From assembly GCA_002391675.1 (NCBI GenBank), contig DGFM01000038.1, positions 1-63,863 of the forward strand: a stretch of DNA of 63,863 nt, given 5' to 3'. The position numbers and the translations under genes are program-made. Below the pieces are notes generated by a model. It worked only from the letters and a program-made list of their open reading frames with translations. It was not told the origin of the DNA and made no database searches. Positions 6,492 to 49,140 of the stretch are shown piece by piece. The first letter of the stretch is position 1; every line of letters begins with the position of its first letter. Origin of the DNA: Cloacimonetes bacterium UBA3900. Its GTDB lineage: Bacteria; Cloacimonadota; Cloacimonadia; Cloacimonadales; Cloacimonadaceae.

Positions 6492-6706
6492 AAGGCCTTG
6501 AAAGGTGGTCTGTTGCCTCCGCTTGCTGTTTTTTCTGTTGACACAAAAGCGATGGCCTATAAATGTGAAATCTCCATAGTCCCCCATTCTTTTTCATATT
6601 TTCAAATTCTATATTAAGGTGAGATGTTATGCCCAATACCAATGAATCCGACAGCTTTAAAAAGCTGGGGGATGAGAGCAGCAACGCCAAGGGAACCGAG
6701 CTTCTC

Positions 6707-13767: not shown

Positions 13768-13829
13768 GAGAGGGCGAGACATGACCTTCACAACCAACAA
13801 CCTCAAAAGATTTAACGGAGCCCAATCCC

Positions 13830-19340: not shown

Positions 19341-20900
19341 GAGTCTCTAATGTTGGTGTAAATTCCAACTTGTTATTGATACGGTTCTCTGAGGACATTT
19401 TAAAATTCCTCGTTATTCACTTCTATGTTCGGTCGACTGACTGTCGCCATTATCTTAACACTGGTGATATTCGTCAAGAGTTTTCTCATTTCTGGCTACC
19501 TGCTACCTTGGGATTGAGCTCTGCGGAGGTGGCATAGCCGACGGAGCAGAGCTCAATCCCGTCGGATTTTACAGCCAATGTCATTGGGCTTTTCTGGTTT
19601 TCTCTAATTGCCTCCATGGGTGATACAATATACCTTTTGCCGCTTATCCAGTCTTCTGATTGATCCTGCAGAATCGCACCGAACATCCTCGCACAGCTAT
19701 TCTCGTCAGGGAATATCCTGACGCATCTTTCCCGGCGTCTCAGCTCTCTATTCACTCGTTCAATTGGGTTCGTGCTCTTGATTTTACTCCAATGCGATGG
19801 AGGGAAATTAAGATAAGCTGTTATCTCGTGGTAAGTGCTATCGAGCCTGCCTAATAGCTTGTCTTTGTTCCTGGCTTCGGCTGCCTTGATGAGCTCGCTC
19901 CAAGCTGCCGCAAAAGATTCCCTTGTACTGGACTTAACCAAATCTTTTATACGCGGCAACAGCCACTGTAGATCAGACTTAGACACCTTGCTCATCGCGT
20001 TGCGCATCCAATGGACAATACAACGCTGTCTGAGTTGACCGGGGAAACATTCCTCTATCGCCTTTATCAATCCATCATGCTCGTCACTGATCCAGAGCTC
20101 CGATCTCTCAAGACCACGTGCTTTTAAGCTCTGAAAGAAGTCCTTCCAATTGTGATAACTCTCACGGTTACCAAGATGAAAACCCAGCACATCACGATAA
20201 CCATCTTCGCTTACACCAATTGCCACTAAAACAGCAGTAGAACGAACAGCATCATCTATCCTGATCTTGGTATAGATCGCGTCAACCCAAATATAGGCAT
20301 AACAGCTATCTAACTGCCTGTTCCGCCACTTCTCTATCTCATCATCAATCTTGGCGGCACAACGGCTTACCAAGCTGCGATCTATATTGCCAAGCCCTAA
20401 ATCCTCAAACACTTGGCTCATCTTGCGAGTAGGCACACCAGCATAATAGGCTTCGCAGATAATGCTGATCAAGGCCTTGTCTACGCGTGAATACCGCTCT
20501 AATATCGAGGGATAGAAACTGCCACGCCGAAGCTTGGGGACACTAACGTTGATCGCCCCTAATGCGGTTTTAAGAGGCTTCTTGCGCCTGCGATAGCCGT
20601 TGCGGCTGTTAGTCCGCTCATCTGATCGCTCATAACGATCGGCGCCCAATCTGTAACTTAATTCCGCTTCAATAAGTTCACGGATGCCGAATGCAAGCAC
20701 CTGCGCAAAATCGTTCGGCATAATTTCACTAAAGTACTTGACTAAATCTGCCACTTCAGTTTTCTTTGTCCTTGGTTGAGTCATTTGATTCTCCTTTAAT
20801 GATTCGTTTTGGTGAGAACCATAAAATAAAAAGTGGGAATCGGCTCAACCTTTTTGTTCAAAACGGTTACCTATTTTACACCAACCTTTGAGACACTACC
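19341..20900 (-). mobile_element. IS256-family insertion sequence, apparently intact
   Basis: Imperfect terminal inverted repeats: GAGTCTCTAATGTTGGTGTAAA (19341-19362) versus the reverse complement of 20875-20896, GTGTCTCAAAGGTTGGTGTAAA. The direct repeat CAGCTTGATGTT flanks the element at 19329-19340 and 20901-20912. It carries a Mutator-family transposase gene. Confidence 0.8.
19486..20784 (-). CDS. IS256/Mutator-family transposase
   Basis: 432 aa. Contains ELIEAELSYRLGADRYERSDERTNSRNGYRRR, YIWVDAIYTKIR, VAIGVSEDGYRDVLGF, ISDEHDGLIKAIEECFP and RCIVHWMRN. Confidence 0.9.
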   Translation of the reverse strand: MTQPRTKKTEVADLVKYFSEIMPNDFAQVLAFGIRELIEAELSYRLGADRYERSDERTNSRNGYRRRKKPLKTALGAINVSVPKLRRGSFYPSILERYSRVDKALISIICEAYYAGVPTRKMSQVFEDLGLGNIDRSLVSRCAAKIDDEIEKWRNRQLDSCYAYIWVDAIYTKIRIDDAVRSTAVLVAIGVSEDGYRDVLGFHLGNRESYHNWKDFFQSLKARGLERSELWISDEHDGLIKAIEECFPGQLRQRCIVHWMRNAMSKVSKSDLQWLLPRIKDLVKSSTRESFAAAWSELIKAAEARNKDKLLGRLDSTYHEITAYLNFPPSHWSKIKSTNPIERVNRELRRRERCVRIFPDENSCARMFGAILQDQSEDWISGKRYIVSPMEAIRENQKSPMTLAVKSDGIELCSVGYATSAELNPKVAGSQK

Positions 20901-24439: not shown

Positions 24440-26311
24440 ATGAAAGAAACCAAAAAAGTTAATGAAAGTATGGCGGAGCAGAGATATTGGAGAAAGATAT
24501 ACCGGCTTCTGAATAGAAAAGAGCGGGTTCAGTTTTTAGGGATACTGTTCCTTCAAATATTAGCATCAATTTCTGAAGTGATCGGTCTTGGGGCAATTCC
24601 TGCATTTATACTTGCATTGTCCAATCCTGCCAAGATATTGGAGCACAAAACTGCTGGCCCCATCCTGAGTCAATTGGGTGTCACTGATTCTAAGAATTTG
24701 TTGATTTGGGGCGGACTTGCCATGATCATCGTGTTTGTTCTCAAAAACATCTTCTTCATTATCGTTGAATATATAAAGGTGAACTATCTGCGCAATCTCC
24801 AGATTCGTATTAGCAGAGAGCTATTTTATAGGTATATGTATGCAGAGTACACCTATCTTCTAAGCCACAACACCGCAGAGCTGCTGCGAAGTTGCATGAG
24901 TGATGTATCAAGGGTTGTTTTGAATGTTGTTCAAAGTTTTCTCACCCTGTTTATGAACATTGTTTTAGCTATTAATCTTATAGTGGTTCTTTTTGTGATG
25001 GAGCCCATATCATCCCTATTAACTGTTGTCGTTATCGGTTCCGTATCTTTCATCTTTTTAAGGGTTACTCGCAACAAACTTGTCAGCTTGGGCCAAAGAG
25101 CCCAGGAAGCTTTCTTAGACATTATACAGGCAGTTGAAGATGGTTTGAGTGGAATTAAAGAAACAAGGGTGATGCAAGCAGAGAGTATGTTTATTAATGC
25201 ATACAATCGTGCCTTCAGGGTTTTTTCAAGATCGGAAAAAATCAGGGGTCTTATCTCAAGTGCCATCCGTCCTATCTTTGAGATTCTATTGGTTGCGGCA
25301 CTGCTGTCAATTACAGCGGTTATGTTCATGCAAAATAAGCCAATTGGGTCAATAATCCCGATGTTGGCTACCTTTAGTGTGGCAATGGTGCGTCTGATGC
25401 CGTCCATAAGGGAAATAACCAGCGTCCTTTCCACTATGAGGTATGCCTTGGTGTCAATAGACCCTATCTTAAGCAGCATGGATATACCTCTTGTTTCTGA
25501 TCCTACGGCTCAAGAAGCAGAAGACGATGATGGTGACAATGCTCTTAAGTTTAATCAAACAATATCAGTGGAAAACCTAACCTACTTCTATCCAAATACC
25601 GATAGGCCAGCCGTTGACAATGTTAGCTTCGAAATCAAAAAAGGGGAAACGGTAGCCTTTGTCGGAGGATCCGGAGCGGGCAAAACCACTCTGTTAGATT
25701 TGATTACCGGTCTTTTGACCCCCACCTCCGGGAGGATATTGGCAGATGGCAACGATATAACAAGCAGGATGAGGCTGTGGCAAAAGAATCTAGGCTATAT
25801 ACCTCAATTCATTTTTTTGGCTGATATTTCCATCAAAGAAAACATTTTATGGGGTAGAAAGGAAACAGCAGAGAATATGGAAAACTACAAGGAAGCAATA
25901 GTAAGTTCCCAATTAGAAGAACTTGTTAACCAGCTTCAACAAGGGGATGATACCATAATTGGCGAGCGAGGGACGAGGCTTAGTGGTGGACAAAGGCAGA
26001 GAATTGGAATTGCGAGAGCTATATTCCGCGATCCTGAAGTTTTGATTATGGATGAAGCGACTGCTTCCTTGGATAGTATTACGGAAAAAGAAATTGCAGA
26101 TGCCTTGGTTAGAATGAAGGGGCAAAGAACTATTTTGATTGTTGCTCACCGTCTAAGCACAGTGCGTAATAGTGATCGGATATACCTGATGGACTCCGGC
26201 AGAATAATTGATTCTGGCAGCTATGATGAACTGTATGAAAGAAATGAAATTTTCCGAAAGCTACACGGCACCTTTGTAAATTCTGAAGAAAGTAAAGAAG
26301 AGACAATATGA
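24440..26311 (+). CDS. Fused TMD-NBD ABC exporter (MsbA/PglK-like)
   Basis: Six predicted TM helices followed by Walker A GGSGAGKTT, signature LSGGQRQRIGIARA and Walker B VLIMDEATASLD. Confidence 0.9.
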   Translation: MKETKKVNESMAEQRYWRKIYRLLNRKERVQFLGILFLQILASISEVIGLGAIPAFILALSNPAKILEHKTAGPILSQLGVTDSKNLLIWGGLAMIIVFVLKNIFFIIVEYIKVNYLRNLQIRISRELFYRYMYAEYTYLLSHNTAELLRSCMSDVSRVVLNVVQSFLTLFMNIVLAINLIVVLFVMEPISSLLTVVVIGSVSFIFLRVTRNKLVSLGQRAQEAFLDIIQAVEDGLSGIKETRVMQAESMFINAYNRAFRVFSRSEKIRGLISSAIRPIFEILLVAALLSITAVMFMQNKPIGSIIPMLATFSVAMVRLMPSIREITSVLSTMRYALVSIDPILSSMDIPLVSDPTAQEAEDDDGDNALKFNQTISVENLTYFYPNTDRPAVDNVSFEIKKGETVAFVGGSGAGKTTLLDLITGLLTPTSGRILADGNDITSRMRLWQKNLGYIPQFIFLADISIKENILWGRKETAENMENYKEAIVSSQLEELVNQLQQGDDTIIGERGTRLSGGQRQRIGIARAIFRDPEVLIMDEATASLDSITEKEIADALVRMKGQRTILIVAHRLSTVRNSDRIYLMDSGRIIDSGSYDELYERNEIFRKLHGTFVNSEESKEETI

Positions 26312-27285
26312 AAGCATTAGTTACCGGCGCCGACGGTTTTATCGGCTCTCATCTAACAGAACACCTGCTGCAAGCAGGCTACCATGTAAGAGCATTAGCT
26401 CAGTACAATAGTTTCAATAACTGGGGTTGGTTGGAAGACGTAGAACCGCGACCCGAACTGGAGATTGTCACAGGCGACGTCCGGGATCCCAATTACTGTC
26501 GTGTGATTTGTGAAGATGTAGATGTAGTCTTCCATCTGGCTGCCCTGATCGCTATTCCTTACTCCTATATTGCTCCTGATAGCTACATCGATACCAACGT
26601 AAAGGGAACGTTGAATATCTGCCAGGCGGCCAGGGATGCAAAAGTGCAAAGGATTTTGGTTACCTCCACCAGTGAGGTATATGGCACGGCGCAATATGTT
26701 CCCATCGATGAAAAGCATCCTATGCAACCGCAGTCTCCCTACAGTGCCAGCAAGATTGGGGCCGATGTCATCGCCATGAGTTTCTACAATGCGCTGAAAC
26801 TCCCGCTCACCATAGTGCGTCCTTTCAATACTTACGGTCCACGTCAGTCAGCGCGGGCTGTGATTCCCACCATCATCACCCAGATCGCCGCCGGGATGAA
26901 GCAGATTAAGCTGGGTGACACCACGCCTACCCGTGATTTTAACTACGTAGAGGATACCTGCAGAGGATTTCTTGAGCTGGCCAAGTGTGACCAAGCCATT
27001 GGTGAAACGGTAAACGTTGGCTCCAACTATGAGACATCTGTTCAAGATACTTTGGAATTGATCAAAGACATCATGCAAAGCGATGTGGAGTTTATCAGAG
27101 ACGAGCAGAGGATCCGTCCTGAAAAGTCAGAGGTGTTCAGGCTTTGGTGCGATAACAGCAAGATACGTGCTTTGACAGGCTTCGAGCCGCGCTACAGCAT
27201 CCGAGAGGGTCTGGAAAAGACAGTGGAGTGGTTTACCCAGCCGGAGAACTTGAGGAAATACAAAGCTGGCATTTATAATGTTTGA
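26308..27285 (+). CDS. NAD-dependent sugar epimerase/dehydratase (extended SDR)
   Basis: Contains VTGADGFIGSHL and the catalytic YSASK. ATGA overlap with the ABC gene. Confidence 0.85.
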   Translation: MKALVTGADGFIGSHLTEHLLQAGYHVRALAQYNSFNNWGWLEDVEPRPELEIVTGDVRDPNYCRVICEDVDVVFHLAALIAIPYSYIAPDSYIDTNVKGTLNICQAARDAKVQRILVTSTSEVYGTAQYVPIDEKHPMQPQSPYSASKIGADVIAMSFYNALKLPLTIVRPFNTYGPRQSARAVIPTIITQIAAGMKQIKLGDTTPTRDFNYVEDTCRGFLELAKCDQAIGETVNVGSNYETSVQDTLELIKDIMQSDVEFIRDEQRIRPEKSEVFRLWCDNSKIRALTGFEPRYSIREGLEKTVEWFTQPENLRKYKAGIYNV

Positions 27286-27287
27286 TT

Positions 27288-27720
27288 CTTCCACGAATGC
27301 TCAAAAGCCCACGAATTACACGAATTATTGGTAAGATGTGTAGACTTGGCGGAAGTGGGTATTAAGAGATTTTAGCGTGCAGATGATAACTACAAATGAG
27401 AATTAACAAGAGTGATACATACTGTCATCTTACATACCCTACAATTGTTGTAATTCGTGTAATATCTATGGCTACCAATGGCCTTGATCCATCCCGCAGA
27501 GCTCTTCCGTCTCTGCAGCGACAGCCCGTTGTCCCCCCCCCTATTATATCGTTCGTGTAATTCGTGTAATTCGTGGGAAGAACATAAACCCCGGAGTTGT
27601 GCGGATTGTGAAGTGTAACAGATGCATAGCTTACAACGATCTCCCCATGATACCCTTATCCGTGTCCATCCGTGTTCATCCGTGGAAAAAGGAAAAAAGA
27701 ACATCCGTGTTATTTCGTGG
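27288..27720. repeat. Inverted partial R1 fragment (27288-27330, CACGAA orientation) plus a full forward R1 copy (27454-27720)
   Basis: TTCCACGAATGC...CCACGAATTACACGAATTA, then TTCGTGTAATATCTATGGCTACCAATGGCC...CGTTCGTGTAATTCGTGTAATTCGTGGG...ATCCGTGTCCATCCGTGTTCATCCGTGG...TTTCGTGG. The repeat ends 12 nt before ATG 27733. Confidence 0.85.
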
Positions 27721-27732
27721 GAAAAACAAAAT

Positions 27733-28968
27733 ATGAACCTTACCTATGACAAACTGCAAGACTTGGAGCGCAGATTAGGCGATTCTTGGTATATTCTGGA
27801 CCTTGACCGGTTTGTGGCTAATTACAACGATTTCTTGGCGGCGTTTCGCAAGTATTACCCAAATACCCAAATAGCATATTCCTACAAAACAAATTATACT
27901 CCTTTACTGGGGAAGACTGTGAATGAGCTGGGCGGATATGCCGAAGTCGTTTCAGAGATGGAATACCTTCTGGCAATCGATATAGGTGTTCAGCCGGAAA
28001 ACATTATTGTAAATGGTCCCTATAAACCTTATCGTGCCTTAGAGTTGTATCTTGAGAGCGGGAGCGTCGTTGTCTTGGATTCTTACCAAGAGTACAAAGA
28101 TACAATTCAGATCGCGAAGTCAAATCATGGTAAACCTCTGAGAGTCGGCTTAAGATGCAATTTCCCCTTATCCGGCTATCCAAATTCCAGGTTTGGCTTT
28201 GATATCAATAATCCCAAGTTTTACGATATTGCCAGAGAGCTTAGTTTAAATAACAATATCGTGCTGGAGGGAATTCATTCGCATTTTCCCTATCGGGACG
28301 TGAACACCTTTTATGAAAGAGTTGAGCGGATGTTTGAAGTATACGACAATGTGTCAGAATTCTGTGATTTGAAGTTTATTGATATGGGCAGTGGCCTGGG
28401 TGGCAGGACGAGCGATGAGTTGGTCAAGCTATTGGGCATCAAAAAGGTGGATTATCAAGACTATGCTGATGTGGTGGCTCATCAGTTTCAAAAGAGATTT
28501 GGGGCTGGTGAACAGGCTCCACAATTGATAATGGAGCCTGGCACTGCACTCGTCGCAGACACCATGTCATATATATGCAAGGTGATTGAGATCAAGAAGG
28601 TCGGGGATAGCAATATTGCCATCACATCTGGGTCCAAAGTTAACTACCATTCGCGCACTTCAAAGCTCAATATGCCAATACAGGTCTATTCCGATGGCCA
28701 TCAAGCTTCGGATCACCTTGATTCCGCGGATATTTCCGGTTATACCTGCATGGAAGAGGATTATATCTATCGGGCATATCAGGGCAATTTGAAAATCGGT
28801 GACTATATCCGAGTCGACAATGTTGGCTCATATTCAATCGTATTCAAGCCTCCTTTTATCAATCCCAATGTTCCCATCATCGCGTATAGTAAAGGTAGTT
28901 ATGATGTGATAAAAGAGGCTGAGGATTTTGAGTATGTTTTTCAACTGTACAAGAGGAAAACTAAATGA
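27733..28968 (+). CDS. PLP-dependent decarboxylase, Orn/DAP/Arg decarboxylase (fold III) family
   Basis: Starts MNLTYDKLQ... and contains YSYKTNY (PLP Lys region), HSHF and EPGTALVAD. The ORF-track N-terminal extension from 27622 merely translates the repeat element. Confidence 0.8.
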   Translation: MNLTYDKLQDLERRLGDSWYILDLDRFVANYNDFLAAFRKYYPNTQIAYSYKTNYTPLLGKTVNELGGYAEVVSEMEYLLAIDIGVQPENIIVNGPYKPYRALELYLESGSVVVLDSYQEYKDTIQIAKSNHGKPLRVGLRCNFPLSGYPNSRFGFDINNPKFYDIARELSLNNNIVLEGIHSHFPYRDVNTFYERVERMFEVYDNVSEFCDLKFIDMGSGLGGRTSDELVKLLGIKKVDYQDYADVVAHQFQKRFGAGEQAPQLIMEPGTALVADTMSYICKVIEIKKVGDSNIAITSGSKVNYHSRTSKLNMPIQVYSDGHQASDHLDSADISGYTCMEEDYIYRAYQGNLKIGDYIRVDNVGSYSIVFKPPFINPNVPIIAYSKGSYDVIKEAEDFEYVFQLYKRKTK

Positions 28969-29906
28969 AAGGCAAGAATAAAGACATGGTGTTTTTCAGA
29001 GGCGACTTCGTTCCCTCTGCTGAGGCTAACATCAGCATCCTGTCTGCCGTGGCTCAATACGGGATGAACGTATTTGAAGGTCTCAGGGGTTATTACAACC
29101 ATGATTCTCTCACCATGAACGTGTTTCAACTGCCTGAGCACATCTCGAGGTTGCTGTGTTCTGCCAGGATGCTCAAGTTCAAGTTAGACCCAGCTCACAC
29201 TCAAGCTTATATAGAACAAAAAGTGAAAGAGCTCATCAAACTGAATGCCCATACCGAAGATATTTACATCAGGGTCTGCCTGTTCTTGGATAACTTTTGG
29301 GGCTGGAGTTCTCAAGATCCTGTGGGGCTGATTATCAATACTTTTCCCAAAGATAGAGCTTTTACCGATTTGAAGGGGCTCAAGTGTTGCGTTTCATCCT
29401 GGCGGCGCATCAACGATTCCTCTTTCCCGCCTCGAATCAAAGCTGGGCCCAATTATCTGAACAGCAGATTATCTCTGTTGGAGGCTAAGCAAAACGGATA
29501 TGATTATCCCATTTTGCTCAATGACAGGTCTACTGTAGCCGAGGGCCCGGGAGCTTGTCTCTTTATCGTAAGAAACGGCTCTTTAATAACGCCACCCGTT
29601 TACGCTTCTGTGCTTGAGAGCATTACCAGAAATGCGGTAATTGATGTGGCGCGCAGTATCCTCAAGGTACCCGTGATGGAAAGAGAGATTGACAGGACTG
29701 AGCTATATTTGGCGGATGAGATATTCTTTGTAGGTACTGCTATAGAGATAATGCCTGTAGAGAGCGTGGATGGAATACAGGTTAAAGATTTTAGGCCGAG
29801 GCCAATAACCAGAGAGATTCTGAAGCACTACTTCAAGATAGTGAGAAGTGAGAGCGAACACTTTGCCAGGTGGAATACACCCATAAAAATGACACAGGAG
29901 GCTTAA
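28965..29906 (+). CDS. Class IV aminotransferase (BCAT/D-amino-acid aminotransferase family)
   Basis: VFEGLRGYY, a PNYLNSRLSLLEAKQNGYDYPILLN-like core, GSLITPP...ESITR and EIFFVGTA. ATGA overlap with the decarboxylase gene. Confidence 0.8.
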   Translation: MKGKNKDMVFFRGDFVPSAEANISILSAVAQYGMNVFEGLRGYYNHDSLTMNVFQLPEHISRLLCSARMLKFKLDPAHTQAYIEQKVKELIKLNAHTEDIYIRVCLFLDNFWGWSSQDPVGLIINTFPKDRAFTDLKGLKCCVSSWRRINDSSFPPRIKAGPNYLNSRLSLLEAKQNGYDYPILLNDRSTVAEGPGACLFIVRNGSLITPPVYASVLESITRNAVIDVARSILKVPVMEREIDRTELYLADEIFFVGTAIEIMPVESVDGIQVKDFRPRPITREILKHYFKIVRSESEHFARWNTPIKMTQEA

Positions 29907-30704
29907 ATGGAGTATATCTCGATAACTAATGACCCAATGGTTGCCCGGCTCTTCGAATCTGCCGGTATCCATGATGTGATGGTTGATCTTGAGATAATAG
30001 GGAAACAGGAAAGGCAAAAGGGGTTGAATACGGTCATATCTTGTCACTCAATGGATGATATCAGCACCATCAGAAATGTCTTAACACAATCCAATTTGCT
30101 GGTGAGAGTCAATCCTATTCACGCCGGATCCAAGGATGAAATAGAGGAAGTGATTGCGAGGAAGGCAGATATCATTATGCTGCCAATGTTTACCACGGCA
30201 GAGGAAGTGGCGCAATTTGTAGAAATCGTTGATGGGCGTGCAAAGGTGTATCTCTTGCTTGAAACTGCCCAGGCAATGGTGAGAATAGACGACATATTGT
30301 CAGTCAAAGGAATTGATGCTATTCACATAGGGTTAAATGATCTGTCCATCAGTATGGGGCTTGATTTTTTGTATGAGCCTCTTATTGGCGGGATTGTGGA
30401 ATATATCTGTTCCAAGATTGGGGCTCACAAGATAAAATATGGCTTTGGAGGCGTATCCAGACTGAGCAGAGGAAAGCTTATCTTGTCAGAGCATTTCAGG
30501 TTAGGGTCTCAGATGGTTATCATCAATAGGGATTTTAGATATTACAAGGAAAGCTATGAGGAGATAATCCAAGCAGTGGACATGAAGCATGAGATAGATC
30601 TGATCAATGAATATCTGGAATCCCTGGTTACAAAAGATGCTGAATATCTTGAATCTAACAGTATAAAATTGGTGGCTGAGATTAAGAGCCAGATAAGGTC
30701 TTGA
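29907..30704 (+). CDS. HpcH/HpaI aldolase / citrate-lyase-beta-like family protein
   Basis: MVDLEIIG, RVNPIHAGS, ADIIMLPMFTTAEEV, LLLETAQAMVRIDDILSVKGIDAIHIGLNDLSISMG. The start immediately follows the preceding stop (TAAATG). Confidence 0.65.
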   Translation: MEYISITNDPMVARLFESAGIHDVMVDLEIIGKQERQKGLNTVISCHSMDDISTIRNVLTQSNLLVRVNPIHAGSKDEIEEVIARKADIIMLPMFTTAEEVAQFVEIVDGRAKVYLLLETAQAMVRIDDILSVKGIDAIHIGLNDLSISMGLDFLYEPLIGGIVEYICSKIGAHKIKYGFGGVSRLSRGKLILSEHFRLGSQMVIINRDFRYYKESYEEIIQAVDMKHEIDLINEYLESLVTKDAEYLESNSIKLVAEIKSQIRS

Positions 30705-30886: not shown

Positions 30887-32209
30887 ATGAGATTGGTGAT
30901 GTTATGCCACTTTTCAAACCCGAAAGTGAGAAGTCGCCTAAATCTATTGTCAAGAAACAGGCTGACGGCAAGAAACTTCTTTAAAAAACGCTCCCAAGCT
31001 GTTTATTCTGATTTTGCACCCTGGGTTTCAAGTTTAATCCTTGAGCTTGAGCATTTTAAAGAGCATGAGTTCCACATTGTATCTCCCCATAGAGGTATGG
31101 CGAGGATGTGTCAGGAGTTTAATCTTGATGGCATTCACTATCATTTTTACAATCCGGATCATCTAAAAAATTATGATTCATTTATGACAAAAACGTTCCC
31201 CAACTCAATGAACCATTATCTGCTCAATAGATATCTCGTTAAGCGCATCATCAGGAAGATAAAACCTGACATCGTAAACCTTATTGGAGCTGAGAATCCC
31301 TACTACTCCAGTGCAGCTCTCGATATTAAGGGAATTCCTATTTATCTCACCGTGCAAACCGTTTATTCAAACGATAATGCAAAACAGTTGTCGGGTTCCC
31401 TTGATCCCTATAGAGCGGCATTGGAAAAGGAGCTGTACCGTAGAGTGTACTACGTTGGCTGTGAAGGTAAAATGCACTATGATTTGATCCGGAAAATGAA
31501 TCCTGAAATTACAATCTTTAAGATGCTTTTTCCCTACAAAAAGCCGGCCTTAGTGGAAGCAGTCGAACCGGAGTTTGACTTTGTAAATTTTGCGGGCAGG
31601 ATGGGGGAATCAAAGGGCGGTCTCGACGCATTAGAGGCTCTCGCGCATCTGAAAAGGCAGGGAATAACAGCTTCACTAAATCTGGTGGGAAGAGCTGCTC
31701 CTGAGTATCAGAGAAAAATGGAAACGTTTGTCAAAGATAACGGCCTATCCGATCAGGTAACCTTTTCGGGGTACTTTAAAGAGCATATTGATATGTTCAG
31801 GCAGGTCAAGAAGTCACGCTTTGCTTTGCTGCCAATAAAGCTGGATGTGATATCAAGCACGATCATTGAGGCAGCTCACCTTGGTTTGCCCATCGTTACC
31901 TATATCACCAGCGGAACCCCCTATCTCAATAGGGACGGCGAGGCTGTGTTGCTATCAAACATTGGAGATATTAAGGGGTTGGCCAACAATATGAAGAGGT
32001 TGCTTGAGAATCCTGAACTTGGGGAAACGCTAAGTAATGCTGCCACTCGCTTGGTCGATAAGGATTTTGATAATAGAAAATCAACCAAGAGTTTGCTGGA
32101 CAACTTTGCAGCAATCCTTGAATATGAGCGAAATGGAACACCTATACCAGAGGAGATGCTCTTTAACCCGGATGATTATCCAGACTACAAAGGAGTGTAT
32201 GGCGGCTAA
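30887..32209 (+). CDS. Glycosyltransferase (GT-B, GT4-like)
   Basis: GT-B C-terminal domain: GRMGESKGGLDAL...LNLVGR...SSTIIEAAHLGLPIVTY. Confidence 0.7.
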   Translation: MRLVMLCHFSNPKVRSRLNLLSRNRLTARNFFKKRSQAVYSDFAPWVSSLILELEHFKEHEFHIVSPHRGMARMCQEFNLDGIHYHFYNPDHLKNYDSFMTKTFPNSMNHYLLNRYLVKRIIRKIKPDIVNLIGAENPYYSSAALDIKGIPIYLTVQTVYSNDNAKQLSGSLDPYRAALEKELYRRVYYVGCEGKMHYDLIRKMNPEITIFKMLFPYKKPALVEAVEPEFDFVNFAGRMGESKGGLDALEALAHLKRQGITASLNLVGRAAPEYQRKMETFVKDNGLSDQVTFSGYFKEHIDMFRQVKKSRFALLPIKLDVISSTIIEAAHLGLPIVTYITSGTPYLNRDGEAVLLSNIGDIKGLANNMKRLLENPELGETLSNAATRLVDKDFDNRKSTKSLLDNFAAILEYERNGTPIPEEMLFNPDDYPDYKGVYGG

Positions 32210-32224
32210 AACAAGCCCAGGTTC

Positions 32225-32434
32225 TTGCCCAAAATTATTTTAGATACCAGATGCGCAATGTCCAACATATACTACCCGTTAGCCTTGCAATCGTCAATAA
32301 ACGGTATAAATGCAACTGTCATGGTATGTTATCAGATAAAGATTACTCTTGGAGTGACCGTTGGTATGGACTCAGCGATTACAAAGGGCGCGCCGGTTGC
32401 TGGAGTATGGGTGGGTAAAACCGCGAGGAACTGA
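32225..32434 (+). pseudogene. Possible remnant of a hexapeptide-repeat (LbH) acetyltransferase C-terminus
   Basis: The 69-aa ORF ends ...INGINATVMVCYQIKITLGVTVGMDSAITKGAPVAGVWVGKTARN. This resembles the C-terminal IG.gsvV.kd.P...v..G.PAr end of LbH acetyltransferases, but the ORF is far too short to be a complete enzyme. Confidence 0.35.
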
Positions 32435-32435
32435 A

Positions 32436-33497
32436 ATGAAAGACAAAATAAAACAACTTAGCATTGATGCTTCATCTTCCATTAGCTCTGCCCTCCAAAA
32501 AATGGATGCCATTGAAAGAAAGCTGCTCATAGTTACCGATAAAGAGCGTTTCTATAGTATTCTCAGTATAGGCGACATACAGCGAGCCATTATCAAGGGT
32601 GTTGACCTAAAAAGTCCCATCATCAATATTCTTAGAGACGAGGTCGGAGTAGCGTCTCCCAAGGATGACATGGAAGCTGTGAGACAGACGATGCTCATGG
32701 AAAGAAACGAGTATATGCCCATAGTTGATGAATGGGGGAATGTAGAAAAAGTGCTTTTTTGGGAAGATTTGTTTTCTGATCATGCGTCACCGGTCAAAAA
32801 GAAGCTGCAGCTTCCTGTTTTGATCATGGCGGGTGGGATTGGTTCCAGGCTCAGGCCTTTAACCAATGTTTTCCCTAAGGCTTTGATTCCCATCGGGGAA
32901 AAGTCTATTATTGAACAGATAATTGACTCCTTTATTGAGTATGATTGTAGAGATTACTATGTGTCGGTAAATCATAAGGCAGAGATGATCAAGTTTTATC
33001 TCAAGGATGGAGCGGCTAAAGGAATAAGGATAAGCTATTTGGAGGAGGATGATTTTTGGGGTACCGCGGGCAGTATACGCTTGCTTGAGCCCTATGTGGA
33101 TTCCACTTTTTTTGTGAGCAATTGCGACATCCTGGTGGACCAAGACTATGCCGATATTCTGGAATTTCATAAAGCTAACCGTAATGAAATTACCATCGTG
33201 GGAGCCATGATGAGCCAGAAGCTGCCCTATGGTGTTATGCATACGGACAATAATGGGATGCTTATCAGGTTAGAGGAAAAGCCAGAGTTCTTTTACAAGA
33301 TCAATACCGGGCTTTATATCTTGGAGCCCTCCATCTTTGTTGATATTCCCCAGGGTGAAGTGTGTCAGATCACAGATATCATTCTTAAGCTGATTGGCCA
33401 AGAGCGCCGTGTGGGTATCTTTCCCGTGAGTGAAAACAGCTGGACAGATATGGGAAACTGGAATGAGTTTTTAAAACAAACGAAGGTACTGGAGTAA
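32436..33497 (+). CDS. CBS-domain-containing sugar-phosphate nucleotidyltransferase (PtmE-like architecture)
   Basis: An N-terminal CBS pair is followed by LIMAGGIGSRLRPLT...PKALIP and a nucleotidyltransferase fold. ATG 32436 is preferred over the upstream ORF start. Confidence 0.8.
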   Translation: MKDKIKQLSIDASSSISSALQKMDAIERKLLIVTDKERFYSILSIGDIQRAIIKGVDLKSPIINILRDEVGVASPKDDMEAVRQTMLMERNEYMPIVDEWGNVEKVLFWEDLFSDHASPVKKKLQLPVLIMAGGIGSRLRPLTNVFPKALIPIGEKSIIEQIIDSFIEYDCRDYYVSVNHKAEMIKFYLKDGAAKGIRISYLEEDDFWGTAGSIRLLEPYVDSTFFVSNCDILVDQDYADILEFHKANRNEITIVGAMMSQKLPYGVMHTDNNGMLIRLEEKPEFFYKINTGLYILEPSIFVDIPQGEVCQITDIILKLIGQERRVGIFPVSENSWTDMGNWNEFLKQTKVLE

Positions 33498-33697
33498 TGA
33501 AAAGGCTTCAGGCTAAATGGAAAAAATATTGGATAAGGGTTGTAGATTCGGATATGTTTTGTAAGATAACCGAGGGGATGGGAGCTTCCATGAACAACAA
33601 GCTATCGATCATAAAACGTGCCTCTTTCCAAGTCAGTTCTTGTGTAAAAAGGCATGGAAGAACAATAGCAGCAGGCCTGTACTATGAAACTGAGTAA
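33497..33697 (+). CDS. Small basic ORF (66 aa), uncertain
   Basis: It fills the only gap here, with a TAATG overlap to the upstream stop and a 14-nt overlap with the Wzy-like start. No recognisable motif. Confidence 0.25.
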   Translation: MKRLQAKWKKYWIRVVDSDMFCKITEGMGASMNNKLSIIKRASFQVSSCVKRHGRTIAAGLYYETE

Positions 33698-34976
33698 ATT
33701 AATCGACATTTTAGCCATCATGGTGATGGGATTTCTCTTTTCAGGACTGTTTGCTTACTTCTTTACCACAAAATCCTTCTTGGGGTTTAATTTGTTGAGA
33801 AGAGATCTGATATTCTTTCTCTTTTACTTGCTCATATTTATCAGGTCTCCCCAAGTCTATTTTAGCGACACAATGAAGCTAATATATCTTTATTACGCTA
33901 TCTTTTATTTGATGCGCATCAGTGGCCACTATGATATTGATAATCAGTGGTTTATGGCTTATCATTACCCTGTTTTTTCTGCAATTCTGATCCATAATTA
34001 CTATGTGGATTCAAAAGATTATCATAGCTATGCCAAGGTTGTTCTGGCTGCCCTCATCTTTGTCGGAATTTCTGCAATTTCCAATATCTATACTCTTATT
34101 AGATATCCTGATGCCACAAGGATGTTGTCGGGAGAGAGTAGCGTGCTATATACCTATGGTTCATTAATATTTGCGAGTATTGGCAGATATGGGTTTGTTT
34201 CCGCTGTTCCCTTTATCATCCCCATGCTTGTTGCTTTCCATAAGAGTAGCGGGAAAACAAGCTTAAGGTTGGTTATCACCGTTTATATTTTGGTCATTCT
34301 AATTTCCCTGTTTTTATCATCGCTCACTGCCCCTATTTTGATAGCAGCACTTTGTTTGCTTTTTTCTCTTTCTGGTCAAAGGAGGTTTAAGGCTTCAATA
34401 CTGGTCTCAACGATATTGCTGGCCATCATTGCTGCTGTTCCTACGCATATAAAAAGTGACTTCTTCTACTCAATCTCTGAAATGGTTACTCAGAAGGACC
34501 TTTCCATGAAAATGAGAGATATTGGCTATGTGATAGAAACCGGGATAGACGTATCAAATCCTCTTTCTTCGGTTGAAGAAAGAGCCGTTAGAATACCGGA
34601 AAACCTCAAAGCATTTGCCTCAAATCCGCTATTCGGCACAGGCTATGAGGTTAATTCACATATCTTCTGGCTGAATAGGTTGGCGCAGGTGGGGCTCATC
34701 GGAACTATCCCGCTCATTCTTATTCTCTTCCGCCATATGAGGCTCTGCCTTAGGCGTTGCGATAGTTACTACCGCTTTTATCTCTTGGTGTCGTTTCTTC
34801 TGTTTATGGTGTCCGGTTTTATGAAGAACATCGTTGGTGATATGTTTTATTATCTCCTCTTGCTTGTACCCGGGATGTATTATCTGAGATACCTGAAGAA
34901 AAACAGTGTAGTAACTGCCAAAGGCTATAGTAGCCCCGTGGCAGTTAAAGCTATAAGCTTGGGTGGAGAAAACTAA
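33684..34976 (+). CDS. O-antigen polymerase/ligase-like (Wzy_C) membrane protein
   Basis: About 10 or more TM helices, with a periplasmic-loop motif GTGYEVNSHIFWLNRLAQVGLIG typical of Wzy/WaaL-family proteins. Confidence 0.7.
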   Translation: MKLSKLIDILAIMVMGFLFSGLFAYFFTTKSFLGFNLLRRDLIFFLFYLLIFIRSPQVYFSDTMKLIYLYYAIFYLMRISGHYDIDNQWFMAYHYPVFSAILIHNYYVDSKDYHSYAKVVLAALIFVGISAISNIYTLIRYPDATRMLSGESSVLYTYGSLIFASIGRYGFVSAVPFIIPMLVAFHKSSGKTSLRLVITVYILVILISLFLSSLTAPILIAALCLLFSLSGQRRFKASILVSTILLAIIAAVPTHIKSDFFYSISEMVTQKDLSMKMRDIGYVIETGIDVSNPLSSVEERAVRIPENLKAFASNPLFGTGYEVNSHIFWLNRLAQVGLIGTIPLILILFRHMRLCLRRCDSYYRFYLLVSFLLFMVSGFMKNIVGDMFYYLLLLVPGMYYLRYLKKNSVVTAKGYSSPVAVKAISLGGEN

Positions 34977-37645: not shown

Positions 37646-38839
37646 ATGATGAGGTATGGTGACATTATGAAGGTTATTATGTTTCACAGCGTCGGCTGTG
37701 ATAATACTGCCTGGAAGCGGAGTTTTCTCTCTGTTCCTCTGCAGCAATTTGAAGCATTTTGTCGGTTTATCCACAAAAACATGATTAAGGCTCACTTTCT
37801 TGATGAGTGGTATGAGGCTCAAGCATCGGGTAAGAGCCATCTTCAAGGTCTGGTTTTAACCTTTGATGACGGTTATTTGGACAACTGGGTATATCTATTT
37901 CCCCTGTTGCAGAAGTATCAGATTAAAGCTACAATCTTTGTTAATCCGGGCTTTGTGGATCCTGTGCCAGAGAAGAGATGTAATTTGACCGATGTGTGGG
38001 AAAACAGATGTGAAGAGCACGACCTGCAGGCTTTGGGCTTTCTAAATTGGTCTGAGATTATTGAGATGCAAAAATCAGGTTGGGTGGATATCCAGTCACA
38101 CTCGATGAGCCACAATTGGCTTTTTTCCTCTGATAAGCTCGTCGACATCTATGCAAGGCAGGAAAAATATGACTGGCTGGCATGGTTGCTTCATCCCGAG
38201 CAGAAATATCAGTATATCTCCAATCCTCAGTTTGCCCATAAAACTCCACTTGGGTTTCCTGTTTTTGAAAATGGCAGAGCCTTGGCAGTACGACAATTCA
38301 TACCCAATACAGATTTTATTGACTATGCCATTTCTCTGTATGCTGAAACCGCCGAGTCTCAGGCGGATACTGGTGCCAAATTTGAGGGTATTGTGGCCAA
38401 GTTAACCGATTTTGGAGAGAAAAATGGCTTTGGAGAGTACGAGTCTGAAGAGATGCAAAAACAGAGATATTGGAGCGAGCTCAAGGATTCAAAAGATATT
38501 TTGGAACAGAAGCTGAATAAGGAAGTAAGATTTCTATGCTGGCCGGGAGGGGGATACAATGATCTTAGTGTAGCATTATCCTGGGATGCAGGCTACAAGG
38601 CTTCCACTATTGCCTCTTGGGACAATCACAGCATTATTGATAACAAAGATGCACGAAAAAGAGTAAAAAGAATTACGCTAAGCCACAGCTTGAAAATAGG
38701 AGATAAAGGGCACTATCCCCTGAAAAATCACTTTATGGCTATGTCCTACAGAGCAAAAAGTGGGAGCGCCATTAACAAATGGGCCCTCAGAGCCGTGAAG
38801 GCGTTTTATCTTGTTAAAGGAGTTTTGGGTGGGAATTAG
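37646..38839 (+). CDS. Polysaccharide deacetylase (NodB family)
   Basis: LVLTFDDGYLDNWVYLFPLLQKYQIKATIFV and IQSHSMSHNW. The start is more likely ATG 37667 (MKVIMFHSVG). Confidence 0.8.
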   Translation: MMRYGDIMKVIMFHSVGCDNTAWKRSFLSVPLQQFEAFCRFIHKNMIKAHFLDEWYEAQASGKSHLQGLVLTFDDGYLDNWVYLFPLLQKYQIKATIFVNPGFVDPVPEKRCNLTDVWENRCEEHDLQALGFLNWSEIIEMQKSGWVDIQSHSMSHNWLFSSDKLVDIYARQEKYDWLAWLLHPEQKYQYISNPQFAHKTPLGFPVFENGRALAVRQFIPNTDFIDYAISLYAETAESQADTGAKFEGIVAKLTDFGEKNGFGEYESEEMQKQRYWSELKDSKDILEQKLNKEVRFLCWPGGGYNDLSVALSWDAGYKASTIASWDNHSIIDNKDARKRVKRITLSHSLKIGDKGHYPLKNHFMAMSYRAKSGSAINKWALRAVKAFYLVKGVLGGN

Positions 38840-40160
38840 AAGCTGTCTATTCCGTATCATACATGATCATATCAAAAAAGATGATCTCTTTGCTAACTAT
38901 CGAATGTTGTTAGAATCCCAGTATTGGGATGAGGATAAAATGCAAGCGTACCAGTTTGGATTACTCCGCAAGCTGTTAGTGGACGCTTATGATGATACGC
39001 TATACTACAAAGAATTATTTGATGGCTTGGGGATTAATCCGCGGGACATAAGAAAAATCGAGGACCTTCGCCAGCTTCCGATTCTCACCAAGAATGACAT
39101 TACACAAAACCTGGAGAGTATGACCTCACGTAAAAGGAATCCAAAGAATAGCAAAACTAATTCAACCAGTGGCTCAACAGGCGTTGCTTTAAAATTCTAC
39201 TCACCCACAAACGTAACCATGATGAGAGCTATCATGATGCGCTGTTCACAATGGATGGGTGTCGGGTTGGATGATAGAACGCTGCAAATATGGGGACATG
39301 GTTTCGGAGAGAAAGAGGGCTTTGTAAAGCGACTTAAGCTCTTTCTGAATAATAATAAAGTAATTTCGGGATATGATCTGTCGGATGCAGATATGGAAGA
39401 GATTATAGAGGTGTTCCGTAAAAGAAAGCCGAAGTTATTCATCACCTATCCCAGTATTTTGGAGCATATTGGCAATTATTGTATTCCCAGAAAGATCGAA
39501 ATCAGGGTGGATGTGATTCGCATAGGTGGCGAAAAGCTGTATCCCCATCAGAGGGAGTTGGCCATGAAGGTTTTCGGTGCCCCGGTTTTTGACTTTTATG
39601 GCAGCCGCGACATCACCTCTATTGCTATGGAGTGTAAGGAGCATCACGGACTTCACATTATGAGTGAAAATGTAATTGTAGAAGTGCAAGACGACAATGG
39701 CAATTTTGTTACTGAGGGAGAGGGGGACCTGATTGTTACCCACCTGCACAACTGGGTTACGCCCTTTATCCGCTATCGCATTGGGGATAGGGTGAGAATA
39801 TCCCAGCGTAAATGTTCTTGTGGAAGGAAACTGCCTTTGATTGAAGAAGTGTTGGGACGCTCTTTTGATATGATTACCTTCCCCAATGGTAATTCTGTAA
39901 TGGGCACTTTTTGGACCTTTCTTTTTAAGAGCAAACCAGGGATAGATCAGTTTTCGGTTCATTTGGTAGCCAAGGATAGGCTTACTATTAAGTATGTCGC
40001 CAGGAACATGCTTTCAGATGCTGCGAAGGAGTACTTTGTATCGGAGATAAAGAAGAAATCCGGCGCAGGGCTCAAGGTCGACTTTGTTCTCGTAGACAGC
40101 ATACCCGTGACATCTGCCGGAAAGCTAAAGTTTGTGTTTGATGAGACCAGGCAGCCTTGA
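38811..40160 (+). CDS. CapK/PaaK-like adenylate-forming ligase (phenylacetate-CoA ligase / F390 synthetase family)
   Basis: LPILTKNDI, TSGSTGVALKF (AMP-binding motif), and a C-terminal SAGKLKFV. The TTG start is uncertain. Confidence 0.7.
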   Translation: MLKEFWVGIRSCLFRIIHDHIKKDDLFANYRMLLESQYWDEDKMQAYQFGLLRKLLVDAYDDTLYYKELFDGLGINPRDIRKIEDLRQLPILTKNDITQNLESMTSRKRNPKNSKTNSTSGSTGVALKFYSPTNVTMMRAIMMRCSQWMGVGLDDRTLQIWGHGFGEKEGFVKRLKLFLNNNKVISGYDLSDADMEEIIEVFRKRKPKLFITYPSILEHIGNYCIPRKIEIRVDVIRIGGEKLYPHQRELAMKVFGAPVFDFYGSRDITSIAMECKEHHGLHIMSENVIVEVQDDNGNFVTEGEGDLIVTHLHNWVTPFIRYRIGDRVRISQRKCSCGRKLPLIEEVLGRSFDMITFPNGNSVMGTFWTFLFKSKPGIDQFSVHLVAKDRLTIKYVARNMLSDAAKEYFVSEIKKKSGAGLKVDFVLVDSIPVTSAGKLKFVFDETRQP

Positions 40161-47997: not shown

Positions 47998-48107
47998 ACA
48001 ACGATTTAAACTCTCACGGGCTGAAGAAGTATTGGTAAACGAGTATTAGACTATACCATATAGTATCAATAGCTCTAAGATCGCTGGAAATTTAAATAAC
48101 GTCCAAC

Positions 48108-49091: not shown

Positions 49092-49140
49092 AAGTTGACA
49101 GTATGCATTCAATATCAGGCAGTTGTGAAAGAGAATATGA

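Follow-up and report, generated by a model that had tools for sequence, protein, structure and literature searches.

A decarboxylase, aminotransferase and aldolase cassette of bacterial glycan loci and its possible role in building branched nucleotide sugars

Introduction

Why should a glycan locus encode, in immediate succession, a decarboxylase, an aminotransferase and an aldolase, and on what substrate might the three enzymes act? The question is raised by the window, by which we mean the whole 63,863-nucleotide stretch of contig DGFM01000038.1 from Cloacimonetes bacterium UBA3900, in which three genes at positions 27733-30704 encode, in order, a PLP decarboxylase of fold III, an aminotransferase of class IV that resembles BCAT, and a divergent class II aldolase related to HpcH. 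The locus is low in GC and flanked by IS256, which marks it as an island. A preliminary description of this DNA had proposed that the trio makes a small hydroxy-amine from pyruvate and a simple aldehyde, to be attached to a glycan by a carboxylate-amine ligase of the same locus. Here, the clade of divergent HpcH/HpaI-like aldolases is labelled ALD and is taken as the core of the module.

Results

The trio and its PLP enzymes

27733..28968, + strand: fold-III PLP decarboxylase; its open reading frame opens at 27622 (27622-28968), with 27733 as the likely start
28965..29906, + strand: BCAT-like aminotransferase of class IV whose side-chain pocket is remodelled (Aminotran_4)
29907..30704, + strand: ALD, a predicted metal-dependent pyruvate aldolase (Pfam HpcH_HpaI)

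Open reading frames, Pfam and NCBIfam matches and a reading of the sequence bear out the families and junctions given in the preliminary description: the decarboxylase and aminotransferase genes overlap in an ATGA (28965-28968), and the TAA of the aminotransferase gene is followed directly by the ATG of the ALD gene (29904-29909). The decarboxylase start that it had chosen, the ATG at 27733, likewise fits the aligned N-termini of 26 homologues more closely than does the ATG further upstream, at 27622, and yields a protein of 411 aa (homologues, 403-425 aa).

The aminotransferase scores 139 bits against Aminotran_4, 253.7 bits against the IlvE model TIGR01122 (cut-off 245.6) and 278.4 against NF005146 (cut-off 279), and is about 40-45% identical to true BCATs. 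In alignment with E. coli IlvE, the equivalents of K159, Y164, E193, R59 and T257 are kept in 27/27 sequences or nearly so. In the side-chain pocket, W126 is replaced by K or R in 24/27 sequences, Y95 by A, S or T in 19/27, and Y129 by T, A, S, Q or N, while the loop carrying M107 and V109 is deleted. The hydrophobic side-chain pocket of IlvE has given way to an enlarged and cationic one, which speaks against the small neutral product that had been proposed. No other class IV aminotransferase was found in the MAG, which is 86.5% complete.

The decarboxylase matches Orn_Arg_deC_N with 85 bits and was rejected as LysA (TIGR01048, 126 bits against a cut-off of 297.9). Among solved structures DAP decarboxylase (2p3e) comes closest, followed by the N-citrylornithine decarboxylase FslC (7kh2, second-best), SbnH and BtrK (7ru7), and the substrates of the last three are amino acids with a large distal group on the side chain. 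However, identity to these three is low (NCBIfam FslC model, 109 bits, cut-off 500), and FslC, SbnH and BtrK belong to siderophore or aminoglycoside biosynthesis whereas the window enzyme lies in a glycan locus. A second fold-III decarboxylase is encoded elsewhere in the genome.

The aldolase clade

ALD matches Pfam HpcH_HpaI (PF03328) with 53 bits against a cut-off of 25 (51.1 bits in the genome search), and its AF2 model (pLDDT 93.8) is a PK-like TIM barrel for which VIA gives Z scores close to 20 with pyruvate kinase, SbnG and HpcH aldolases. For GarL (1dxe), SwHKA (8adq), SbnG (4tv6) and an HpcH/HpaI aldolase of D. hafniense (3qz6), Z is 19.4-19.8 and the rmsd 2.1-2.5 Å across 189-195 residues. 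An hhalign comparison with YfaU/GarL (96.6% probability) places R67, E119 and D145, invariant across 28 family members, on YfaU R74/E153/D179 (HpaI R70/E149/D175), such that the catalytic Arg of HpcH and its two metal ligands are kept. While ALD shares this barrel, these residues and a D-x-E...H motif with HpcH/HpaI, YfaU (RhmA) and GarL, it is only about 17-21% identical to them, has no counterpart of the YfaU 112-141 insert and carries a 17-residue insert peculiar to the family, in which K33, R36 and Q37 are invariant, and it resides in glycan loci rather than in catabolic operons. Orthology to HpaI, RhmA or GarL was rejected (29.3, 28.0 and 21.1/20.7 bits against NCBIfam cut-offs of 369, 441 and 393/407). 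Enzymes of a standard pathway, which would have counted against the preliminary description, are not borne out: the LysA model and these aldolase models all score below their cut-offs. The PEP mutase/isocitrate lyase family PF13714 has no match to the window ALD protein; one fused ALD relative reaches a sub-threshold 21 bits. At least 6522 relatives of ALD were scored, and carriers are found in 475 of 185,579 GTDB species from nearly every phylum; the clade has no curated family model, and our literature search found no paper on it.

Co-conservation, partners and fusions

The trio occurs together in 22 of the best 80 ALD-carrying loci, in glycan loci of at least 10 phyla, and also in Aliarcobacter, Smithella and one Bacteroidales chromosome. 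This adjacency is far beyond chance. The trio stands as one co-conserved functional unit, which supports the preliminary description. Among the same best 80 loci ALD is partnered by aminotransferase and decarboxylase in 22, by an aminotransferase alone in four, by a 2-hydroxyacid dehydrogenase in 21 and by a conserved uncharacterised 412-aa protein in eight, seven of which also have AsnB. Fusion proteins join ALD to the decarboxylase (about 695 aa), to Ldh_2 and to D-2-hydroxyacid dehydrogenase, the latter two being unrelated families of 2-oxoacid reductases that replace the aminotransferase in other loci. The decarboxylase fusion and the pairing or fusion with 2-oxoacid reductases or AsnB indicate that the product of ALD is a 2-oxoacid, consistent with the proposed order of aldolase, aminotransferase and decarboxylase.

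A second set of associations concerns sugar priming. ALD is fused to small phosphoglycosyl transferases (PGTs; 470-495 aa) and to membrane/CoA_binding_3 domains (about 600 aa), a small PGT lies at most three genes from ALD in 45 of 76 loci, and a PGT often interrupts the trio (aminotransferase, PGT, decarboxylase, ALD). From these fusions and this proximity, ALD is bound up with the sugar-priming step. A long PglF-like dehydratase lies directly 3' of the module in L017, L022, L023, L025, L061 and L001, and a LegB-like dehydratase flanks it in the window, L006, L007 and L008; these dehydratases are non-orthologous and give the same product, a 4-keto-6-deoxy-HexNAc. Only 2 of the 22 trio loci contain DegT, and it is missing from 14 of 23 PglF-like loci, although PglF-like genes without DegT are also found in ordinary QuiNAc/FucNAc pathways and the count lacks a proper baseline. 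ALD, PGT, AsnB and a PglF-like dehydratase form a module in eight loci, and a Rhodobacterales plasmid carries DegT, AsnB and ALD together with nonulosonic-acid genes.

Neighbouring genes in the window

26308..27285, + strand: LegB-like NAD-dependent HexNAc 4,6-dehydratase (NCBIfam TIGR04180, 514 bits, cut-off 475)
30887..32209, + strand: GT4 glycosyltransferase, co-conserved with the cassette (Glycos_transf_1)
32361..33497, + strand: CBS-domain sugar-1-phosphate nucleotidyltransferase of PtmE-like architecture (NTP_transferase, 138 bits, plus CBS domain)
33684..34976, + strand: Wzy-like polymerase in the conserved block (weak Wzy_C match)
38811-40160: CapK/PaaK-like ligase candidate
41374-42435: ATP-grasp ligase candidate 1
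43469-45301: AsnB-like ligase candidate
50399-51748: ATP-grasp ligase candidate 2

Orthologues of the LegB-like dehydratase adjoin the trio in L006, L007 and L008 (65-82% identity), and those of the GT4 enzyme follow ALD, either directly or after one intervening gene, in L006, L007 and L009 (40-41%). The CBS-nucleotidyltransferase has orthologues in L006, L007, L009 and L010 (46-63%), beginning 22 bp past ALD in L010, and occurs in 7 of the 22 trio loci; the Wzy-like polymerase has positional homologues in L006-L009 at 23-26% identity. We propose that the nucleotidyltransferase makes an NDP-HexNAc and that the dehydratase turns out an NDP-4-keto-6-deoxy-HexNAc acceptor, with the GT4 enzyme as candidate transferase for the modified sugar. 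A legionaminic acid pathway was rejected for the LegB/PtmE-like pair: the 86.5%-complete MAG has no match to a NeuB-family synthase, which leaves the pair outside any complete pathway of this kind in the assembled genome, and the LegC model reaches only 65.8 bits (cut-off 420), on a truncated DegT-DUF354 fusion.

All four ligase candidates pointed out in the preliminary description are real open reading frames, but the link that it drew between them and the trio is not supported, since homologues of the four (CapK-like, two ATP-grasp and AsnB-like) occur in 0/22, 1/22, 0/22 and 0/22 trio loci.

Discussion

The association of ALD with PGTs and HexNAc 4,6-dehydratases indicates a sugar-borne substrate. 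We therefore favour, with a probability of roughly one half, a scenario in which the cassette would tailor a nucleotide sugar and release no free amine, ALD adding pyruvate to an NDP-4-keto-6-deoxy-HexNAc, followed by transamination and decarboxylation to a 4-C-(2-aminoethyl) sugar. We infer all five steps from comparative genomics and residue conservation. The CBS-nucleotidyltransferase and LegB-like 4,6-dehydratase (in other lineages a PglF-like dehydratase) would first provide NDP-2-acetamido-2,6-dideoxy-hexos-4-ulose. ALD would then form a metal-bound pyruvate enolate and add it to the C4 ketone, giving a 4-C-(CH2-CO-COOH) branched sugar with the carbon skeleton of the known sugar shewanellose. 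The BCAT-like aminotransferase would turn the 2-oxo group of the side chain into an amino acid, the fold-III decarboxylase would strip the carboxylate to leave a 4-C-(2-aminoethyl)-6-deoxy-HexNAc nucleotide, and the adjacent GT4 enzyme, or an adjacent or fused PGT in other lineages, would transfer the sugar.

That ALD acts on an NDP-4-keto sugar is proposed on genomic context, namely dehydratase adjacency, the PGT fusions and the absence of DegT. The aminotransferase pocket and K33, R36 and Q37 of the ALD insert would fit a bulky anionic substrate, and that no activating ligase is co-conserved fits a sugar already activated as a nucleotide, which would need none. Several observations count against a nucleotide sugar. 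No dehydratase was found within 8-10 kb of ALD in L086, L089 and L098, while the five other Clostridia ALD-locus genomes checked each have one PglF-like gene elsewhere (5/5). In L088, the neighbours of an ALD-decarboxylase and an aminotransferase are an AlaDH-like gene and a pair of phosphoribosyltransferases, and glycan genes are absent from the vicinity. In L041 and L045, a full PglF/DegT/PglD set adjoins ALD, implying another consumer for the keto-sugar there. The closeness of the aminotransferase to true BCATs also weighs on this side, and we know of no class II aldolase that acts on a nucleotide keto-sugar; HpcH, YfaU and GarL take a small aldehyde as electrophile.

It is possible, though rather unlikely, that ALD condenses pyruvate with a small aldehyde and that the resulting free hydroxy-amine, or another small amine, is amide-linked to a uronic acid by an ATP-grasp, CapK-like or AsnB-like enzyme of the locus, as in C. 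jejuni HS:2. This chemistry is standard for HpcH aldolases and BCATs, and four ligase candidates do lie within the window. The trio without sugar genes in L088 is in keeping with it, as are L036 and L084, in which a distant decarboxylase lies next to an ATP-grasp gene alongside ALD. The precedent of Cj1436, Cj1437 and Cj1438 invoked in the preliminary description is genuine: PLP enzymes of the HS:2 capsule locus (glucuronamide genes Cj1436, Cj1437, Cj1438C and Cj1435) yield small amines that decorate the glycan (PMC11800397). The likeness lies in the PLP enzymes of a glycan locus, but the HS:2 enzymes act on phosphorylated C3/C2 units, namely DHAP and L-serine phosphate, there is no aldolase, and an ATP-dependent amide ligase and a phosphatase are required; with the window ligase families so rare in trio loci, a system of this type is not supported. 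Furthermore, a free amine does not account for the fusions of ALD to PGTs or membrane anchors or for the PGT within the trio, the loci with a 2-hydroxyacid dehydrogenase or with no partner lack an enzyme able to attach a free acid, and the aminotransferase pocket is ill-suited to a small neutral side chain.

Less probable still is a small anionic 2-oxoacid, made from glyceraldehyde-3-phosphate (KDPG-like) or glyoxylate (4-hydroxy-2-oxoglutarate), whose amino-polyol phosphate or amino-hydroxy acid derivative would be activated by the CBS-nucleotidyltransferase and added as a phosphodiester or N-acyl decoration. The cationic pocket and K/R-rich ALD insert suit a phosphate or carboxylate, the nucleotidyltransferase can lie immediately past ALD, and the nearest decarboxylase relatives use amino acids with distal acidic groups. 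However, most trio loci lack the nucleotidyltransferase, the trio is not accompanied by any co-conserved kinase, phosphotransferase or acyl ligase, the PGT fusions are left over, and the LegB-like dehydratase of the window would have no consumer.

We regard it as very improbable that ALD is a CitE- or SbnG-type CoA-ester lyase or synthase and that the decarboxylase takes a citryl- or acyl-amino acid, the situation in the siderophore pathways of SbnG/SbnH and FslC. The structural neighbours do include SbnG (Z 19.8) and citrate lyase beta (Z 18.8), CoA-ester lyases (18.5-18.8) tying within 1-2 units with the best score of 19.8, and FslC ranks high among the decarboxylase relatives. Against this, CitE-like chains are matched only marginally in sequence (E 0.08-0.8) whereas YfaU reaches 5e-6, the partners are 2-oxoacid reductases and an aminotransferase rather than NIS synthetases or CoA ligases, and, L088 apart, the context is a glycan locus throughout. 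Finally, that housekeeping amino-acid genes (IlvE, a LysA-like decarboxylase) lie here by chance is scarcely credible, even with an aminotransferase above the IlvE cut-off and alone of its class in the MAG, given a trio co-conserved and partly fused in glycan loci across phyla, the poor LysA score (126 bits against 298), the substituted BCAT pocket and the island setting.

The favoured route through a branched nucleotide sugar has partial parallels in known systems. Shewanellose, 4-C-(3'-carboxamide-2',2'-dihydroxypropyl)-2-acetamido-2,6-dideoxy-galactose, is a C-branched sugar of Shewanella putrefaciens A6 whose side chain on a 6-deoxy-HexNAc is formally the pyruvate aldol adduct of a 4-keto sugar followed by amidation (PMC4052302). 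By their predicted chemistry, the eight ALD-PGT-AsnB-dehydratase modules match its expected needs, although its side chain is amidated whereas that of the window would be aminated and decarboxylated to aminoethyl. The reported O-antigen contains an 8-epilegionaminic acid derivative, and the Rhodobacterales plasmid likewise pairs ALD with nonulosonic-acid genes; we found no paper on shewanellose biosynthesis.

In yersiniose A synthesis, ThDP-dependent YerE branches a CDP-4-keto sugar by transferring a two-carbon acyl anion. This pyruvate-derived carbon nucleophile adds to C4, the keto carbon of a nucleotide-activated 6-deoxy-4-ketohexose. An attack of this kind is also proposed for ALD, but ALD is an unrelated protein, predicted to be metal-dependent, that would pass on the pyruvate enolate with all three carbons. 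The PGT-ALD fusions resemble Neisseria PglB, in which a PGT is fused to a nucleotide-sugar-modifying acetyltransferase, in that a small PGT is joined to an enzyme finishing its nucleotide-sugar substrate, the partner here being an aldolase instead.

Perhaps, at somewhat less than even odds, the large yet neglected ALD clade represents an unrecognised class of metal-dependent aldolases that C-branch nucleotide sugars, the 2-oxoacid side chain being diversified by interchangeable partners. The partner would then set the outcome: AsnB would lead to shewanellose, whose formation would be accounted for, reductases to a lactyl-type branch, an aminotransferase to an alanyl branch, and aminotransferase plus decarboxylase to an aminoethyl branch. 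If so, an undescribed family of branched sugars is predicted in hundreds of species of bacteria, Patescibacteria and archaea, and with it several novel chemistries of surface sugars; among them would be a cationic sugar with an aminoethyl branch, expected to change surface charge, phage receptors and immune recognition. ALD would provide a genomic marker for such glycans and a new type of biocatalyst forming tertiary-alcohol C-C bonds on sugar nucleotides. Even if the sugar-borne reading is wrong, ALD together with an interchangeable 2-oxoacid-processing partner gives a new and testable rule for annotating glycan loci.

The cassette in its glycan locus

Beyond about 22.5 kb, the rest of the window is a polysaccharide locus on the + strand, with a GC content of 0.41-0.47 against 0.52 upstream. 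An IS256-family transposase gene (19486-20784, - strand) lies at the boundary where GC drops from about 0.52 to about 0.42, and the entire glycan locus has the appearance of an island gained by horizontal transfer. The contig, assigned here to Bacteroidota, also carries a T9SS PorZ gene, and the top match to the aldolase-like protein (ALD, a name used here also for its divergent HpcH/HpaI-like clade), at 94% identity, is labelled Proteiniphilum sp. The three reading frames of the preliminary description, with their ATGA overlap and TAA-ATG junction, are all present in the sequence, as are its four ligase-like genes, and the decarboxylase start that it placed at 27733 matches the N-termini of homologues.

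Features of the locus (+ strand)
24440-26311, fused PglK/MsbA-like ABC exporter, upstream of the cassette
27622/27733-28968, decarboxylase (Orn_Arg_deC_N)
28965-29906, aminotransferase (Aminotran_4)
29907-30704, ALD (HpcH_HpaI)
33684-34976, Wzy-like polymerase, downstream of the cassette
46208-47317, AAA_21 ATPase, overlapping a DUF4276 gene
47284-47997, DUF4276 gene, first copy
48108-49091, GT4 gene, preceding the second DUF4276 copy
49141-49866, DUF4276 gene, second copy
50399-51748, ATP-grasp-like gene lacking a Pfam match, preceding the next gene
51745-53985, 746-aa fusion of the N-half of a DegT aminotransferase (profile residues 24-188 only) to a DUF354 domain

No Wzx gene was seen in the window. 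The stretch from 46208 to 49866 looks like a defence-type ATPase/DUF4276 pair that has inserted amid the glycan genes, plus one orphan duplicate.

Three enzymes with unusual features

ALD belongs to the HpcH superfamily but is divergent: the Pfam HpcH_HpaI profile scores 53 bits, the HpaI, RhmA and GarL equivalogs just 21-29 bits, and there is no clade-specific NCBIfam model. Its AF2 model is a TIM barrel (pLDDT 93.8) that resembles pyruvate kinase, SbnG and HpcH aldolases equally well, with Z about 20 for each; the structure search could not tell these and CitE-type proteins apart, all scoring Z 18-21, and the ESM Atlas returned only clusters named "aldolase family protein". Profile alignment to E. 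coli YfaU/GarL (96.6% probability) matches the invariant R67, E119 and D145 with the catalytic arginine and two metal ligands, and reveals an ALD-specific insert of 17 residues that carries invariant K33, R36 and Q37. A phosphonate route, in which ALD would be a cryptic PEP mutase leading via phosphonoalanine to AEP, was dropped because ALD does not match the PEP_mutase profile, lacks an EDK-type motif and conserves the HpcH catalytic residues.

The decarboxylase is a fold-III PLP enzyme that scores 126 bits against the LysA model, whose cut-off is 298, and is thus not LysA. Its closest solved relatives are DAP decarboxylase, the N-citrylornithine decarboxylase FslC and BtrK, whose substrates are amino acids bearing a large distal substituent. 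The aminotransferase is near true branched-chain enzymes (TIGR01122, 253.7 versus 245.6 bits; PDB 6h65, E 4e-68). When 27 cassette aminotransferases are aligned to E. coli IlvE, the catalytic residues are retained but the hydrophobic side-chain pocket is remodelled: W126 is replaced by lysine or arginine in 24 of the 27, at least 80% of members share a neighbouring arginine, small residues stand in for Y95 and Y129, and the M107/V109 loop is missing. The resulting pocket is predicted to be larger and cationic, a poor fit for a small neutral side chain. A role in standard lysine or branched-chain amino acid metabolism is considered very unlikely on the model scores and the co-conservation of the three genes. 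No class IV aminotransferase other than the cassette enzyme was detected in the MAG (86.5% complete), which may lack a housekeeping IlvE or have its gene in unassembled sequence.

Distribution and partners of ALD

At least 6522 ALD relatives were scored in a search limited to 8000 candidates, and the family occurs in 475 GTDB species across most phyla, including Actinomycetota, Bacillota, Bacteroidota, Ignavibacteria, Pseudomonadota, Desulfobacterota, Campylobacterota, Acidobacteriota, Verrucomicrobiota, Patescibacteria and one archaeon. Neighbour clustering of the best 80 ALD loci showed the co-occurrence of the three families; the trio was also found in Aliarcobacter, Smithella and a Bacteroidales chromosome.

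Partners of ALD among the best 80 loci
Aminotransferase and decarboxylase (the trio): 22
Aminotransferase only: 4
D-2-hydroxyacid dehydrogenase: 21
Unknown 412-aa protein: 8 (AsnB also present in 7)
None of these: 25

Cultivable carriers include Geomonas diazotrophica, Colwellia sp. C1TZA3 and Aliarcobacter cryaerophilus for the trio, Pseudoalteromonas rubra S2676 for the aminotransferase-only type, Bacillus sp. SD075 and Planococcus chinensis for the reductase type, and Pedobacter montanisoli and Tenacibaculum amylolyticum for the AsnB type. Natural fusions join ALD to the decarboxylase (about 695 aa), to Ldh_2, to a 2-hydroxyacid dehydrogenase, or to a small phosphoglycosyl transferase (PGT) in a single chain of 470-495 aa, as in Pusillimonas. 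Very common are proteins of about 600 aa (L086:9001-12368, also P0160 and P0135) in which an N-terminus of the membrane/CoA_binding_3 type known from PglF or WbaP precedes the ALD domain; genes for a small PGT and a 2-hydroxyacid dehydrogenase come next. Since the alternative partners all use 2-oxo-carboxylates, the product of ALD is probably a 2-oxoacid, and the order aldolase, aminotransferase, decarboxylase given in the preliminary description is well supported.

A free or a sugar-borne substrate

The main rival to the reading that we favour holds that the cassette makes a free hydroxy-amine, which the ligases of the locus then attach as an amide. Its precedent is real: in C. jejuni the transaminase Cj1437 and the decarboxylase Cj1436 act with the amide ligase Cj1438C and the phosphatase Cj1435 (PMC11800397). 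However, the ligase partnership that defines the C. jejuni system is absent as a co-conserved feature of trio loci. Across the 22 trio loci, homologues of the CapK-like and AsnB-like genes of the window occur in none, and those of its two ATP-grasp genes in one and none, so the proposed link to carboxylate-amine ligases is not supported, and we consider the free-amine route less likely.

The neighbours that do recur point to nucleotide sugars. In 45 of 76 loci a small PGT gene is found no more than three genes away from ALD, and in some loci, from several phyla, it interrupts the trio to give the arrangement aminotransferase, PGT, decarboxylase, ALD. A tight ALD-PGT-AsnB module, mostly with a PglF-like dehydratase next, occurs in eight loci (hosts Pedobacter, Mucilaginibacter, Tenacibaculum, Arcobacter, Poseidonibacter, Endonucleobacter and a Flavobacteriaceae MAG). 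In L017, L022, L023, L025, L061 and the Aliarcobacter locus L001, the gene immediately after the ALD cassette encodes a long PglF-like dehydratase. Just 2 of the 22 trio loci contain DegT, and 14 of the 23 loci with a PglF-like gene are without it, a count taken from ALD loci alone.

A block ordered LegB-like dehydratase, decarboxylase, aminotransferase, ALD, GT4, CBS-domain sugar-1-phosphate nucleotidyltransferase and Wzy-like polymerase is largely common to the window, L006 (Actinomycetota) and L007 (Bacillota), although in L006 the LegB-like gene follows ALD rather than preceding the decarboxylase; with FnlABC, the block is shared by Actinomycetota, Bacillota and Alphaproteobacteria MAGs. 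In L008 (Ignavibacteria) the LegB-like gene is upstream but apart from the trio and the nucleotidyltransferase is a distant one; in L009 (Cohaesibacter) the decarboxylase is missing, and so is a close LegB-like gene. LegB-type and PglF-type dehydratases are non-orthologous, and both yield a 2-acetamido-2,6-dideoxy-hexos-4-ulose nucleotide. No NeuB-family synthase was found in the 86.5%-complete MAG, and the LegB/PtmE-like pair therefore stands outside any recognisable legionaminic acid pathway, and nothing but the trio evidently uses its product.

We therefore propose, at a probability of roughly 0.5 and from sequence comparison, that ALD C-branches an NDP-keto-sugar with pyruvate. ALD would add pyruvate to the C4 ketone, and the aminotransferase and decarboxylase would then turn the -CH2-CO-COOH branch into -CH2-CH2-NH2. 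This reading would account for the PGT fusions, for the dehydratases that adjoin ALD, for the absence of an activating ligase, for the exchange of partner enzymes between loci, and for both the cationic pocket of the aminotransferase and the lysine/arginine insert of ALD. The window ligases could still acylate a sugar-borne amine, so the two models are not fully exclusive.

Shewanellose, 2-acetamido-2,6-dideoxy-4-C-(3'-carboxamide-2',2'-dihydroxypropyl)-D-galactose, offers a chemical parallel, albeit a circumstantial one, to the ALD-PGT-AsnB modules; it occurs in S. putrefaciens A6 alongside an 8-epilegionaminic acid derivative (PMC4052302). It is formally the C4 pyruvate aldol adduct of the 2-acetamido-2,6-dideoxy-hexos-4-ulose with its carboxyl amidated. 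Certain M. morganii strains also bear shewanellose. Photobacterium ALD DNA had no match in E. coli genomes and thus provides no tie to a solved O-antigen structure. On a conjugative Rhodobacterales plasmid (NZ_CP049039.1, locus 5684-16118), DegT-AsnB-ALD is followed by NeuB-like and PGT genes, and the plasmid also carries CMP-transferase, NeuC and N-acetyl-sugar amidotransferase/HisH/HisF genes; these genes would form a mobile determinant of both a nonulosonic acid and an ALD-derived sugar.

Several observations weigh against C-branching. At L088:9001-14464 an ALD-decarboxylase fusion and a class IV aminotransferase precede an AlaDh_PNT-family gene and two phosphoribosyltransferases, with no glycan genes near the fusion, an arrangement that sugar tailoring leaves unexplained. 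No dehydratase was found within the examined loci L086, L089 and L098; a PglF-like gene lies elsewhere in the genome in all five other Clostridia ALD-locus genomes checked. In some loci the full PglF/DegT/PglD set adjoins ALD. Moreover, we know of no aldolase that acts on a nucleotide sugar.

A search of the literature outside subscription journals found no paper on the ALD clade. The cassette is a variant on known themes, namely class II aldolases and nucleotide-sugar tailoring, and the chance that sugar C-branching enzymes of a new class are at work here is substantial.
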